From a virus, in IMG/VR virus record IMGVR_UViG_3300020576_004942: 48,623 nt of DNA. One strand, given 5' to 3'. A program made the position numbers and the translations under genes. How positions within the stretch are numbered: position 1 is the first letter of the stretch; every line of letters starts with the position of its first letter. The notes under the pieces are model-generated. The model saw only the letters and a list, made by a program, of their open reading frames with translations. It ran no database searches and was not told the DNA's origin. Below are positions 5,085 through 45,891 of the stretch, in pieces.

Positions 5085-5112
5085 TTGACTTTTTATATAT
5101 TCGTGAGATAAT
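5085..5112 (+). promoter_or_regulatory. sigma70-like promoter (motif family) with inverted repeat around -10
   Basis: TTGACT (5085-5090), 16-nt spacer, then TGAGATAAT. The inverted repeat CGTGAG (5102-5107) / CTCACG (5116-5121) brackets the -10. ATG follows at 5122, giving a near-leaderless transcript. Confidence 0.5.
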
Positions 5113-5121
5113 GTACTCACG

Positions 5122-5526
5122 ATGAAGATTAAATCAATTGACCGCACAACGGCTCGGCAAATCTCCGCCGACATTAACACCGCAATTCAATCCGTGGCTA
5201 CCAAGTATGGTATTTCCTTAAAAGATAAGGGCTGCCGCTTCAGTGCCACTAATGCTACCTTCAAAATTGAAGCGGCTTTGATTGGGGCAGGCGGCGTAGT
5301 TGTTTCCCGTGAAAGAGATGATTATAAACTTTATGGTTTCATGTACAACCTCAACCCCTCTTGGTTGGACAAATCATTTAATCACGGCTCAGACGCATTT
5401 ACAATAATTGGCCTATCCACTCGCAAGCGGAAGAATCCGGTTCTAGCCAAGAGCGCCAAAAACGGTAAAACCTACATTTTCCCGGCTAACCTGGTCAAGA
5501 CCTTGATGGAAGCAGAGAATAAGTGA
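5122..5526 (+). CDS. hypothetical protein
   Basis: 134-aa ORF directly downstream of the promoter. Confidence 0.5.
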   Translation: MKIKSIDRTTARQISADINTAIQSVATKYGISLKDKGCRFSATNATFKIEAALIGAGGVVVSRERDDYKLYGFMYNLNPSWLDKSFNHGSDAFTIIGLSTRKRKNPVLAKSAKNGKTYIFPANLVKTLMEAENK

Positions 5527-5527
5527 T

Positions 5528-5686
5528 ATGACAATGACATACGAAGAATGGAAACAAAAGCGGGCGGCTAATAAACAGGTAGGCGACTACCTTGAAAAAG
5601 CCCGACAAGCCAAGTTTGCGGAAGAACAGTCCAAAGAATCGGTATTTACAAGGCCGGTGAAATCAATCGTGGATGTTGATAACTAA
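5528..5686 (+). CDS. possible small protein (52 aa)
   Basis: ATG overlaps the upstream stop (TGATATG) and the ORF fills the gap to the next gene exactly. It is below the track cutoff. Confidence 0.3.
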   Translation: MTMTYEEWKQKRAANKQVGDYLEKARQAKFAEEQSKESVFTRPVKSIVDVDN

Positions 5687-5917
5687 ATGAAAATTATCGC
5701 CGAGTTGGATGGGTTCGAAACCGAAGCCTTATTTGATATTATTGAACGGGAAATTATCAAGAATAGAGAGGAAGCAAGACTGAGCCATTTGGCAAAAGAA
5801 ATTTCCGACTCACGACTTGACTGGCACTTGGGCCACGCTGAGTTCCTCTCCGGCATCAAAACCAAACTGCTTAACGAACACACAAAAGCAACCCAGTATT
5901 TAAAAAGAAAAAATTAA
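5687..5917 (+). CDS. hypothetical protein
   Basis: 76-aa acidic ORF. Confidence 0.4.
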   Translation: MKIIAELDGFETEALFDIIEREIIKNREEARLSHLAKEISDSRLDWHLGHAEFLSGIKTKLLNEHTKATQYLKRKN

Positions 5918-5920
5918 ATT

Positions 5921-6166
5921 ATGAAAATTAAACTATTAACCCTAATATCCATCTGTGGAATGCTCGTTGGTTGCGCCGGTAATAATCCAGTGGCTTGTCA
6001 GAGTGAAGTCGCCAAAGAGTTTCCGGAAGGAGAAATCCAAGGCATTCCTGGCTGCAATTATAAATTCCTGGTTCGGGATACCAACAGCAGCATTTGGTAT
6101 GTTGAGAATCTGAACCTGAACGATTCGAAAATCAGTGGAAAAGTCCTCCTTTTTAAAGGAAAATAA
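5921..6166 (+). CDS. lipoprotein
   Basis: Signal peptide plus lipobox, MKIKLLTLISICGMLVGC. Confidence 0.55.
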   Translation: MKIKLLTLISICGMLVGCAGNNPVACQSEVAKEFPEGEIQGIPGCNYKFLVRDTNSSIWYVENLNLNDSKISGKVLLFKGK

Positions 6167-6174
6167 ATAAAGGC

Positions 6175-6202
6175 TTGACTTGTTATAAAATGCCTGTATA
6201 AT
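6175..6202 (+). promoter_or_regulatory. sigma70-like promoter
   Basis: TTGACT (6175-6180), 16 nt, TGTATAAT (6195-6202). It shares the AATAAGGCTTGACT upstream context with the 5085 promoter. Confidence 0.5.
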
Positions 6203-6226
6203 GTACCCATAATCAAAAAACGCTAA

Positions 6227-43992: not shown

Positions 43993-44091
43993 ACCGGCCA
44001 GCCCCGAACACCAAACCTTTTGGGATAATCAGTTAGCCGATCAAATCCCTTTTCCTGAGACCCGGAATTTTCTGGGACGCATAGGCCAATT

Positions 44092-44271
44092 ATGAATGAA
44101 CAACCACCCATCATCCCCACCAAGCCCAAGGGATTTACAATAAAACTCTCCACGGCGCTTATTATTTGTTTTATCATCGGCCTCTATCTTGGTTACTTTC
44201 TAGGCGCTGTCATATTCTTTTTAGGCTTTGGTTGGTTTATTGTAAACAAGAAAGGTGAGAAGATTTTTTAA
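44092..44271 (+). CDS. possible 59-aa membrane protein
   Basis: Read by eye. The TM helix IICFIIGLYLGYFLGAVIFFLGFGWFIV is more protein-like than the overlapping track ORFs. Confidence 0.35.
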   Translation: MNEQPPIIPTKPKGFTIKLSTALIICFIIGLYLGYFLGAVIFFLGFGWFIVNKKGEKIF

Positions 44272-44313
44272 TATTATGCGTATCCATCTATTACTATTCC
44301 TTATTGAAACGCC

Positions 44314-44553
44314 TTGGCTACAGATTATGACCTGGGCACCATACCTGCCCCTGCTCTGGTAAACGGTATGGCAAAGCACGAAGTGACCTGCGCGAATTGC
44401 GACAAGACCAAAAAATACATTGACACCCGGGATATTACCAAAGAGGGTTGGTATATTATCGGTTGGGATGTGGCAACCGGCGGACCTATTGTTAGCTGCG
44501 ACAAATGTCCGCCACCTTTTTGGATAAAAAATAATGAAACTAAGCGAATATAG
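44314..44553 (+). CDS. small zinc-ribbon protein
   Basis: CANCD...CDKC. Confidence 0.4.
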   Translation: MATDYDLGTIPAPALVNGMAKHEVTCANCDKTKKYIDTRDITKEGWYIIGWDVATGGPIVSCDKCPPPFWIKNNETKRI

Positions 44554-44842
44554 AAAAGAATTACATTCCCTTTTGGAAGGCGCGAATAAACTGGATGAGC
44601 GGTTAAAAACCCAATCGATCACTGCGGACTGGTTAGTGGAACGCTCCAATGAGATATGTCAAAAAATTGATGTGGAGACTGATGAAAAAAAAAAAAAAAA
44701 ATATCTTAATGAGGCGTTGGAACTGGCTGCGCGGTTGACATCAGAGATGCGGATGATTGAAAAAGATCATCTGACCGAAAAACAAATCAAGCAGAAATTA
44801 AAAGACTTGGATAAACGTGTGGCGAATGAAGGCTTGGAATAA
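44534..44842 (+). CDS. coiled-coil protein containing A17 homopolymer (KKKKK)
   Basis: 102 aa. The A run at 44685-44701 is in frame. Confidence 0.45.
   Translation: MKLSEYRKELHSLLEGANKLDERLKTQSITADWLVERSNEICQKIDVETDEKKKKKYLNEALELAARLTSEMRMIEKDHLTEKQIKQKLKDLDKRVANEGLE
44685..44701 (+). repeat. A17 homopolymeric tract inside CDS
   Basis: Counted directly. It is the longest homopolymer in the window. Confidence 0.9.
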
Positions 44843-44854
44843 TATTTATTCCAT

Positions 44855-45310
44855 ATGAAAATCAACAAAAAACAAATCAAGTCGCTCGTCAAAGAAATCA
44901 TCACCACTGCCTTAGAGGAAACCGTGGGGGATGCTAGTTGGACATTGGTAGATGACGACAATGTCCTCATTGAAAATTTTGAAACACCCACGGGTCAGAT
45001 CGTTGATATCAATGTCTATATTCGTGGCATATGGGATGACGGCGCATTCGACTATGAATACGGTAGCATCAAGGGCACGCATCGTTACGAAACCCAATAC
45101 GAAGTGGATGAACACACCATTGATGAAATAAAAGACAATAAGACCGGACAGATTATCTGGCAAATGACTAAGGAAACCCCGAGCCTAAAATTGTTTAATC
45201 CTGAATTGGACTTAGCCATTGAAAAATACTGGGATGACATTGAGCGGAAAGTGGAGCAGTATATCAATGAGAACCCTCCGGATCAGGATTTCGGCGGAGA
45301 CGAGGATTGA
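44855..45310 (+). CDS. acidic hypothetical protein
   Basis: 151 aa. Confidence 0.45.
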   Translation: MKINKKQIKSLVKEIITTALEETVGDASWTLVDDDNVLIENFETPTGQIVDINVYIRGIWDDGAFDYEYGSIKGTHRYETQYEVDEHTIDEIKDNKTGQIIWQMTKETPSLKLFNPELDLAIEKYWDDIERKVEQYINENPPDQDFGGDED

Positions 45311-45313
45311 CGG

Positions 45314-45628
45314 ATGCGTAAAATGTTGTTACACAAAAAAGTTCTGGTTAGGGAAGAACATTCTGCCCCCATGCCGCGAATTTTCGATCCGGGCCGTGGG
45401 ATTGATGAAAAACTCTATAAGATTCCGATCATTACCGATGAAGTATTTCCGGAAATGGAGAATTCGTTGGCCGTCCTCGCGTCGGCGGAATGGGCTCTGA
45501 TCCGTTATTTTCAAGCCAAATACCCCACCGATTACCTCCACGTTCAAGTTGTAAAAGTCGAACCGCAGGCAGTAACCGTGGCGGTCATTTTGTACTCCGA
45601 TGTCCTATCGCAAACTCTTGCTCCATAA
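45314..45628 (+). CDS. hypothetical protein
   Basis: 104 aa. Confidence 0.4.
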   Translation: MRKMLLHKKVLVREEHSAPMPRIFDPGRGIDEKLYKIPIITDEVFPEMENSLAVLASAEWALIRYFQAKYPTDYLHVQVVKVEPQAVTVAVILYSDVLSQTLAP

Positions 45629-45866
45629 AGCGAAGCACATTTCTACCTTCACAGAGGTAAGTGGATTTGTGCGGGTTTATGAAATCCCCTTTCTTTCGGA
45701 TGAACCGATTGGTAATCCTGCCGATTTCCTCGACGCGGTGGAAACGGCTTTATTAAAACATCTTAACCTATCGGTTGGTTCCATTATCGCCACTTATATC
45801 CAGCCGGACTCAGTTCTCATTCAGACCCGGATTCTTCTTCATTCTCACCCCCATCAACTTCCTTGA
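45600..45866 (+). CDS. hypothetical protein
   Basis: 88 aa. It overlaps the upstream gene by 29 nt in another frame. Confidence 0.3.
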   Translation: MSYRKLLLHKAKHISTFTEVSGFVRVYEIPFLSDEPIGNPADFLDAVETALLKHLNLSVGSIIATYIQPDSVLIQTRILLHSHPHQLP

Positions 45867-45891
45867 CTTTTTATACTTCTTCTGGTACAAT
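45864..45891 (+). promoter_or_regulatory. sigma70-like promoter with inverted repeat embracing -10
   Basis: TTGACT (45864-69), 16 nt, TACAAT (45886-91). CTTCTGG / CCAGAAG flank the -10. Confidence 0.45.

Follow-up and report, generated by a model that had tools for sequence, protein, structure and literature searches.

Consensus sigma70-type promoters placed next to start codons in the putative early region of an uncultivated rII-encoding phage

The viral metagenome contig IMGVR_UViG_3300020576_004942 carries, between its genes, a family of promoter-like sequences of the sigma70 type, and in over half of them an ATG follows the -10 hexamer at a distance of a few nucleotides. This layout raises the question of how the genes downstream are transcribed and translated, and of what is encoded by the spacer sequences which some of the promoters have in common and by the inverted repeats which surround the -10 of others. 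The window analyzed here is the entire contig, 48,623 nt long; it also occurs in a Logan assembly of SRR32380203. An earlier note on this DNA, made from the sequence alone, had proposed an early or middle promoter class dependent on the host sigma70, leaderless or very short-leader mRNAs lacking a Shine-Dalgarno (SD) sequence, and control by phage-encoded repressors or activators bound to palindromes. The first two proposals are upheld by the analysis; the third appears unlikely. The reading favoured here, to which a probability of about 0.7 is assigned, is that strong early promoters of the host-sigma70 type, of the kind known in phage T4, drive first cistrons which are leaderless or preceded by leaders of 1–5 nt, and that genes located downstream are translationally coupled to them.

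Promoter motif and distance to the start codon

The pattern TTGACH-N16/17-KAYAAT has nine exact matches in the window (5085, 6175, 8667, 12552, 23832, 28291, 31184, 38432, 45863), all on the plus strand, versus 0.23 expected from shuffled sequences, which corresponds to an enrichment of about 40-fold. Relaxing one position adds six sites (612, 2131, 16179, 20315, 33326, 43610), and the family reaches 15 members. The figure of at least 12 intergenic sites given in the earlier note is replaced by these two counts, and two of its coordinates, 38433 and 45864, have been moved by one nucleotide. Site 1201 (ATGACT-16-TATAAT, 2 nt before an ATG) was left out of the family count. All strict sites lie between genes, or reach no further than the final codons of the gene before them (binomial P=4e-11). 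Equal density in coding sequence had been named beforehand as an observation that would speak against the motif; no strict match lies wholly inside the 45,286 nt of coding sequence, all being intergenic, and the motif therefore survives. Of the 26 intergenic gaps exceeding 30 nt, 15 contain a family promoter, and terminators are found in several others.

The -35 starts with TTGAC in 14 promoters out of 15, site 20315 differing from all others (TAGACA), and is separated from the -10 by 16 nt at 11 sites and by 17 nt at four. The -10 is TATAAT, TACAAT, GATAAT, or a one-off variant. Ten promoters feature the TGn of the extended -10 (P=2e-9), and A is frequent in the 22 nt preceding the -35 (0.39 vs 0.30). 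These traits, along with the intergenic location on the gene strand, support the assignment to a host-sigma70-type class. In the related phage L060 all six promoters (4321, 6789, 9967, 12435, 14179, 19567) have GGGC directly before the -35 (GGGC-TTGAC), and several promoters of the window, 5085, 6175 and 28291 among them, have GGC or GC at the same place; the motif may denote an extended -35 preference of this phage group.

Promoters may be mimicked by chance in A/T-rich DNA, and archaeal TATA boxes deserve mention, as the spacer sequence TTTATAAA resembles a TATA box, lies about 25 nt upstream of putative leaderless starts, and leaderless mRNAs are common in archaea. Either origin is given practically no weight. 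The fold enrichment and the complete strand and intergenic bias are hard to reconcile with both; the TATA-like spacer is found at 4–7 of the 15 sites only, while hexamers spaced by 16–17 nt are found at all. Spacers of L060 promoters are G/C-rich, and the genes are of the kinds carried by bacterial phages. Archaeal TATA boxes were thus rejected on the enrichment and strand bias, and on the composition of the L060 spacers.

At nine of the 15 promoters an ATG is found 6–11 nt after the -10 (null 0.043; P=2e-9). These promoters, with their start codons, are listed in Table 1, and are referred to below as the short class. The earlier note had placed the ATG 5–10 nt after the -10 in six genes; the range is correct for five of them, while the gap preceding gene 38471 measures 11 nt. 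Start codons of short-class genes are well determined, as in-frame stops lie 6–39 nt upstream and no alternative starts are available; in most cases any further in-frame ATG is dozens of codons into the gene, if present at all. Gene 648 and its ortholog in L055 align from the first residue (MNIKFECFCGQPIEV and MIIKLHCDCGQPIEV), the respective promoter gaps being 8 and 6 nt. The TTG proposed as start at position 612 by the open reading frame finder is the -35 hexamer itself.

With initiation assumed at the seventh nucleotide beyond the -10, the gaps of 6, 6 and 7 nt predict entirely leaderless mRNAs for three genes, and the remaining six would carry leaders of 1–5 nt. In bacteria with many leaderless genes, the distance from the first T of the -10 to the start codon has its peak at about 12 nt (PMC3160421; PMC12340547). 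The 6–7-nt gap, which is the modal one in the promoter set described below, equals this signature; in the window, promoters 23832, 33326 and 43610 have a -10 that ends 6–7 nt short of the ATG and leaves no space for an SD.

An SD core of at least 4 nt precedes 17.5% of all genes, compared to 7% of random positions, and A/T residues are enriched at -8 to -1 upstream of starts. The lack of SD sequences at promoter-proximal genes, already noticed in the earlier note, is hence real, but not peculiar to them. Strong SDs had been reported for two genes, those encoding a major vault protein (MVP) homolog and a homing endonuclease; GGAGG is found at the latter, while MVP has merely AAGGA. The homing endonuclease gene (40041) is in this respect unlike almost all other genes of the window, and its SD fits a foreign origin and a recent acquisition from an SD-using background. 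Most same-strand junctions (62%) are either overlaps, 23 of which of the ATGA type, or gaps of at most 6 nt, and translational coupling of internal cistrons fits such a tight arrangement.

Conservation of the spacing was monitored in related loci, gathered by pattern searches, homolog searches and contig look-ups. The comparison includes, next to the window, L060, L055, L064, L072, L073, L077-L080, L161 and L162, all uncultivated phages with a G+C content of 33–46%. Their relatedness to the window varies. L060 encodes an rIIA protein 32% identical and a helicase 55% identical to those of the window; rIIB proteins of L077-L080 are 56–69% identical and syntenic; L161 and L162 carry orthologs of the Y4mA_C-domain gene; L055 has a few small proteins in common with the window. 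L064, L072 and L073 feature the same architecture, but their available stretches show scant protein similarity, or none.

Distances from the -10 to the ATG are bimodal in the pooled set of about 75 promoters: some 45 measure 5–11 nt, with a mode at 6–7 nt, only two 12–23 nt, and some 28 at least 24 nt. In a single case, in L064, the distance is 0 nt, and a second in-frame ATG is present at 9 nt. Each gene tends to retain its class. The helicase gap is 6 nt both in the window and in L060; gaps before Y4mA_C orthologs measure 9, 9, 9, 7 and 8 nt (9 nt in L078 and L080, 7 nt in L079); leaders of the orthologs measure 24–38 nt in rIIA and 29–40 nt in rIIB.

Short distances might be a by-product of genome compaction. 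Promoters squeezed into tiny gaps would serve the genes located further downstream, the adjacent ATG would be read only from read-through mRNA, and the spacing would be functionless. Short-class promoters do reside in gaps of just 33–47 nt within a genome which is about 93% coding, and read-through is possible for most operons, since terminators are few. Compaction alone, however, would also yield promoters overlapping the start of the open reading frame, while in about 11 genomes essentially no distance is shorter than 5 nt or falls between 12 and 23 nt. Short spacings are missing in L066/L067/L074, a different phage, compact and SD-using, in which very similar promoters are followed by leaders of 24–61 nt only and by clear SDs. 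The spacing class is kept gene by gene across divergent relatives, which argues against an accident of compaction, and a functionless spacing is regarded as improbable. Promoters of L066/L067/L074, which form a further family of repeated cassettes in an unrelated phage, are organized in a dense array (e.g., L067 1110-14320) of units of the type AAAAAAAGGC-TTGACT-N16/17-TGTTATAAT, each with a conserved leader start (tagaactata/cagt) followed by the SD.

The rIIA leader may hold a signal of its own. The block AAAAACGCTAA (6216..6226, plus strand) lies directly 5' of the rIIA ATG and is unique in the window. This conserved block, given also as GAAAACGCTAA, precedes the rIIA ATG in all six phages compared (window, L060, L077-L080), and is present in two copies in L078. 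It is retained though rIIA proteins are, at the extreme, only about 32% identical, and may function as a translational operator or enhancer.

In the reading favoured here, family promoters in the phage early region would be recognized by the host housekeeping RNA polymerase holoenzyme, containing a sigma70-type factor, and each would head a short operon, whose small genes are closely packed or overlap. Transcripts of the short class would begin on the AUG, when the gap measures 6–7 nt, or 1–5 nt before it, and the first cistron would be translated by a leaderless-type initiation, dependent on the 5' end and independent of the SD. Transcripts of the long class, which includes those of rIIA, rIIB and others, would feature A-rich, mostly SD-less leaders of 24–91 nt. 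Downstream cistrons would probably be translated via coupling or re-initiation. The leaderless or very-short-leader layout announced in the earlier note is backed by strong statistics and well-determined start codons, and is kept in the related phages.

Some considerations weigh against this reading. Only the 6–7-nt gap sets the AUG at the canonical +1, the gaps of 8–11 nt implying leaders of 1–5 nt, and additional 5' nucleotides reduce leaderless expression in E. coli. First cistrons could be translated mainly from read-through transcripts instead. The predicted 5' ends are unstructured, but not to a significant extent. The window is devoid of core genes, the T4-like label being drawn from rIIA/rIIB, RNA ligases and gene organization, and the early timing of expression is deduced from promoter type and gene content only.

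The host must be able to recognize TTGACA/TATAAT promoters and to translate SD-less, and probably leaderless, mRNAs. TnpB genes of the IS605 family reside within the early regions of two relatives, L077 (1114-2205, minus strand) and L162 (14501-15706). The nearest genomic homologs of the L077 TnpB are mostly in metagenome-assembled genomes of Ktedonobacteria and Chloroflexia (Chloroflexota), at 36–42% identity, a level too low for host assignment. The flanks of the Chloroflexota TnpB loci (61% G+C) contain too few consensus promoters for a comparison of spacing.

Table 1. Promoters of the family, an associated terminator, and genes of reference in the window. TGn motifs are given in brackets; gaps are measured from the -10 to the ATG.
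Feature	Position	Strand	Remarks
Promoter TTGACA-16-(TGa)GATACT	612..639	+	ATG 648, gap 8 nt
Promoter TTGACA-16-(TGa)TAGTAT	2131..2158	+	ATG 2167, gap 8 nt; exonuclease-like gene
Promoter TTGACT-16-(TGa)GATAAT	5085..5112	+	ATG 5122, gap 9 nt; Y4mA_C-domain gene
rIIA promoter TTGACT-16-TATAAT	6175..6202	+	leader 24 nt, without SD
rIIB promoter TTGACA-17-(TGg)TACAAT	8667..8695	+	leader 36 nt, A/C-rich; overlaps rIIA 3' end
Promoter TTGACT-17-TACAAT	12552..12580	+	ATG 12591, gap 10 nt
Promoter TTGACA-16-(TGa)TATACT	16179..16206	+	91-nt leader to NUDIX/NMNAT-like gene 16298
Weak promoter-like sequence TAGACA-16-(TGa)TAGAAT	20315..20342	+	precedes MVP-like gene; leader 54 nt, AAGGA
Promoter TTGACC-16-TATAAT, spacer TTTTATAAAAGT	23832..23859	+	ATG 23866, gap 6 nt (A at canonical +1); T5orf172/ResIII helicase
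Promoter TTGACA-16-(TGa)GATAAT, spacer TTTTATAAAAGT	28291..28318	+	ATG 28328, gap 9 nt
Promoter TTGACA-16-TACAAT, spacer TTTTATAAAAGT	31184..31211	+	17-nt leader to 31229
Promoter TTGACG-17-TACAAT	33326..33354	+	ATG 33361, gap 6 nt
Promoter TTGACA-16-(TGa)GATAAT, spacer TTTTATACAAGT	38432..38459	+	ATG 38471, gap 11 nt
Promoter TTGACT-16-(TGg)TACATT	43610..43637	+	ATG 43645, gap 7 nt; in divergent control region
Promoter TTGACT-17-(TGg)TACAAT	45863..45891	+	29-nt leader to 45921
Strong intrinsic terminator, hairpin and T-run	16128..16152	+	just upstream of promoter 16179; only clear stem-loop-plus-promoter unit (similar to a promoter-early stem-loop cassette)
rIIA	6227-8683	+	
rIIB	8732-9877	+	
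RNA ligase	10456		
NUDIX/NMNAT-like protein	16298		
NAMPT	17281		
MVP homolog	20397-22955		852 aa, MVP shoulder and repeat domains
T5orf172/ResIII helicase	23866		
Eco57I-like methyltransferase	26075		
Radical SAM protein	38920		
GIY-YIG/NUMOD3 homing endonuclease	40041-40793		

Shared spacers and promoter cassettes

Some promoters are similar well beyond the hexamers. The extended core TTGACNTTTTATAMAAGT is found without changes at 23832, 28291, 31184 and 38432, and with three mismatches at 6175 and 45863. A fifth site, 5085, had been included more loosely in the earlier note among those sharing the core, and matches just its first 13 nt. A second common block, GTGAGATAMTGT, is present at four sites. 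Identity among copies is limited to about 28–33 nt, promoters 28291 and 38432 being identical at 27 of 28 positions. An origin by segmental duplication was considered and rejected, because flanks are at background identity and the proteins encoded downstream are unrelated. Also rejected was the description of ACATTTTATAAAAGTGT as a 17-bp spacer palindrome, since its symmetric part is just TTTTATAAAA (10 bp; 12 bp at 23832).

Phages of the group tend to have a house spacer each. TTTTATAAAAGT is found in the window and in L055, and TTTTATA(A/G)AC in L161. The L162 spacer, AAATAGATTTAATCTA, occurs in four copies, which are identical from about -43 through the ATG. L078 and L079 each carry pairs of promoters identical over 27 to more than 50 nt, while the spacers of L060 are unrelated and G/C-rich. 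To judge from these patterns, near-identical spacers are best explained by concerted evolution, through duplication or gene conversion, of promoter cassettes within a genome. A phage factor co-evolving with the spacer would yield an identical genome-specific pattern.

Concerted evolution of promoter cassettes has been proposed for the promoter-early stem-loop (PeSL) cassettes of T4-type phages (PMC4122927; see also Arbiol 2010, PMC2839356, and Comeau 2014, PMC4122927, for their description). Promoters of the window could accordingly be mobile units of the PeSL type, which spread and are homogenized by recombination, with the extended identity as a by-product, and shuffle cassettes of ORFans, a scenario compatible with the reading given above. 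The restriction of the identity to a short element, among random flanks and unrelated downstream proteins, and the genome-specific spacers with their long identical copies, are in keeping with it. Promoters precede ORFan cassettes, and the interval between rIIB and the helicase gene measures about 14 kb in the window and about 2 kb in L060; in general, the relatives differ greatly in the genes they carry between conserved anchors, though the genomes compared are highly divergent. PeSLs of RB49 and phi1 feature a near-perfect TTGACA-N17-TATAAT (PMC4122927). The defining upstream stem-loop, however, is found at only 1–3 of the 15 promoters, and the 3' end of the unit lacks an SD. PeSL-type mobility is regarded as a possibility, though short of an even chance. 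Membership of the PeSL family in a strict sense was rejected, as the stem-loop is significant only at 16179 (z=-5.6), possibly also at 38432 and 43610, the other 12 promoters being at background.

Inverted repeats around the -10

Three promoters are associated with inverted repeats, all noticed already in the earlier note. TCGTGAG-ataatgta-CTCACGA (7-8-7; 5101-5122, plus strand) spans the -10 of promoter 5085, ends on the A of the ATG, and folds as RNA with an energy of -9.5 kcal/mol. CTTCTGG-7-CCAGAAG (45879-45899) flanks the -10 of promoter 45863. The perfect 9-5-9 palindrome ATTCTATCA-gtgtg-TGATAGAAT (20320-20342) marks the MVP site, and is promoter-like on both strands. Since the repeats lie upstream of the predicted start sites, they would be present as RNA only in read-through transcripts.

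The earlier note viewed the palindromes as sites for phage-encoded proteins. Repeats and conserved spacer would, on such a view, be operators through which repressors or activators switch the promoter class. Arms of at least 7 nt are indeed enriched, being found at 3 of 15 promoters versus about 0.4 expected (P=0.008), and the MVP palindrome is individually improbable (about 0.004 per promoter). The spacer sequence TTTTATAAAA is a 10-bp palindrome, and a genome-specific spacer is also what a co-evolving phage regulator would be expected to leave. The three repeats are, however, mutually unrelated in sequence, and three different proteins would be required. Neither the MVP palindrome nor its half-sites have a second copy in the window, and no helix-turn-helix or other DNA-binding domain was found in the approximately 40 window proteins scanned, about 60 small ORFans being outside the scan or of no known fold. 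The spacer motif is dispensable for function, as the orthologous promoters of L060 have unrelated, G/C-rich spacers, and in L162 and L079 the identity of the copies runs past the promoter into flanks and leader, as is the case for copied cassettes. Finally, the repeat at 5085, which is conserved, varies among phages by a compensatory pair, and an RNA stem fits this change better than an operator. The repressor-site idea would have been the more novel regulatory claim, but is unsupported, and operators are regarded as unlikely.

RNA stems of this type have been described in T4, in which the initiation region of genes e, soc, 49 and I-TevI is masked by a hairpin in long transcripts, but not in transcripts starting from a promoter inside the hairpin (PMC3014915). 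The repeat at 5085 may similarly mask the start codon in read-through transcripts, while RNAs begun at the embedded promoter would be devoid of the 5' arm, and translated. The geometry is suitable: the loop contains the -10, and the 3' arm includes the predicted start site and has the A of the AUG as its last nucleotide. No terminator is present between the upstream gene 4815-5081 and the promoter, and the repeat is kept in L078 and L080, where the outer C-G pair is changed to T-A. On the other hand, only one compensatory event is seen in three close orthologs; the 5' arm shares positions with TGn and the -10, a region under constraint anyway; L079 lacks the repeat, and the one found in L162 is weak and differs in sequence. 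Start masking is suited to 5085 only, and impossible at 45863 and at the MVP site, where the repeats are located 22 and 54 nt upstream of the AUG, respectively. The hairpin is therefore advanced as a tentative interpretation for one promoter, and is given less than an even chance.

One more inverted repeat was found in the divergent control region (43532-43644) which separates the sole sizeable minus-strand cluster, made by four ORFans (42188-43531), from the plus-strand gene 43645. This 16-nt inverted repeat (GTCAATTTATTATAGC ... GCTATAATAAGTTGAC) has a G/C-rich centre, around which TATAAT-N3-TTGAC is found in either orientation. For the minus strand, GATAAT is found 7 nt before the ATG, yet TTGACG lies just 10 nt upstream of GATAAT.

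Gene content and comparison with known systems

The gene map of the window, built on codon statistics, includes about 100 genes, mostly small, which cover about 93% of the sequence. Nearly all are carried by the plus strand, exceptions being the four-gene cluster mentioned above and 1–2 small genes at the extreme left end. The gene set looks typical for the plastic early part of a large phage of the T4-like or rII-encoding kind. The phage collection holds no close cultivated relative, as judged from megablast and from tblastn with four proteins (rIIA, radical SAM, NAMPT and RnlA), identities being at most 45%. The window contains no tRNA genes, and no match to Rfam families at gathering thresholds.

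Four groups of genes can be singled out. The cluster 16298-19894 encodes NUDIX/cytidylyltransferase-like, NAMPT, nucleoside 2-deoxyribosyltransferase-like and NADAR proteins, and presumably resembles phage pathways for the salvage or reconstitution of NAD+ which counter NAD-depleting defences. L064 carries a PRPP-synthetase-like gene instead. The module 23866-28294 includes genes for a T5orf172 (GIY-YIG-like) and ResIII helicase, an Eco57I-like methyltransferase and N6_Mtase-related proteins, has more than 4,000 homologs in bacterial genomes, and looks like a restriction-modification or defence-type module situated within a phage early region; in some relatives (P0003) a single fused protein combines helicase and methyltransferase. 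The small genes 1419-1607, 1604-1792 and 1789-2127 are arranged in tandem and joined via ATGA overlaps, and the last one has an fn3 hit in the Logan annotation; genes 1604-1792 and 1789-2127 are likely tandem paralogs, because they share a near-identical upstream sequence, gaaaaagaggaaccggaaaaagaATG. The gene 20397-22955, a phage-encoded MVP homolog, has its own weak promoter and is followed by a strong terminator (22975-23006).

No description of promoters abutting the ATG in T4-type phages turned up in literature searches. It is conceivable, though more doubtful than not, that the arrangement is the rule in a widespread clade of uncultivated large rII phages of the T4-like kind, in which most early first cistrons would be leaderless, or have leaders of at most 5 nt, and be transcribed from consensus sigma70 promoters, with coupled downstream genes and embedded-promoter hairpins at some genes. 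If true, early expression in the clade would be largely independent of SD pairing. This could reflect either an undescribed group of hosts, SD-poor and competent for leaderless translation, or a phage strategy favouring its own 5'-terminal AUGs. Embedded-promoter hairpins would make translation of some genes conditional on initiation at their own promoter, and the phages would provide natural cases, spread over several genomes, of start codons attached directly to strong consensus sigma70 promoters. In practical terms, an ATG located 6–11 nt after TGnTAnAAT may serve as a rule for annotating start codons in these genomes; the joint need for consensus sigma70 promoters, infrequent SDs and competence for leaderless translation is a clue for host prediction; and compact promoter/start modules may be of use in expression work. 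Repeated promoter cassettes evolving in concert would also exist beyond the enterobacterial and Vibrio T4-like phages in which PeSLs were defined.

T4 early promoters have been described as "uber" promoters, in which UP, -35, TGn and -10 elements are joined by extra consensus positions, and which outcompete host promoters for the sigma70 holoenzyme (PMC2988021). Promoters of the window are similar to them in having near-consensus -35, TGn and -10 elements, an A-rich upstream region and extra conserved positions, and in occurring in many copies, co-oriented with clusters of small early genes which include rIIA and rIIB. They differ in two respects. T4 mRNAs have normal leaders with SDs, whereas over half of the window promoters abut the start codon and SDs are rare genome-wide. 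The -35 of T4 early promoters is a variant similar to GTTTAC, whereas that of the window is TTGACA. With PeSLs the window shares repeated, similar sigma70-like early promoters in plastic regions rich in ORFans, a genome-specific consensus, and signs of duplication and homogenization of the copies. Unlike PeSLs, most window promoters lack an upstream stem-loop and all lack the SD, the start codon being found right after the -10 in the short class.

Hairpin-masked starts of T4 resemble promoter 5085, which lies within an inverted repeat whose 3' arm extends over the start codon; in T4, however, promoters are late and the hidden element is an SD, whereas promoter 5085 is of the sigma70 type and precedes an SD-less start (PMC3014915). 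In leaderless, or TA-led, genes of Deinococcus-Thermus, Actinobacteria and other bacteria, the -10 is similarly located a few nucleotides before the ATG, and leaves no room for an SD (PMC3160421, PMC12340547). In the window the -10 is accompanied by a full consensus -35 and by TGn, many gaps measure 8–11 nt, and the phage is a large one, encoding rII proteins and of moderate G+C content, with the promoters in its early region. Phage transcripts offer comparison cases too. The lambda cI mRNA is leaderless. Middle and late genes of the Thermus phage phiYS40 are reportedly leaderless as well, and many of their promoters, as many Deinococcus promoters, consist of the -10 only. The promoter family analyzed here is not a new kind of system, and is best placed as a variant in which features of T4-type early promoters, PeSL-like cassettes and leaderless genes are combined.

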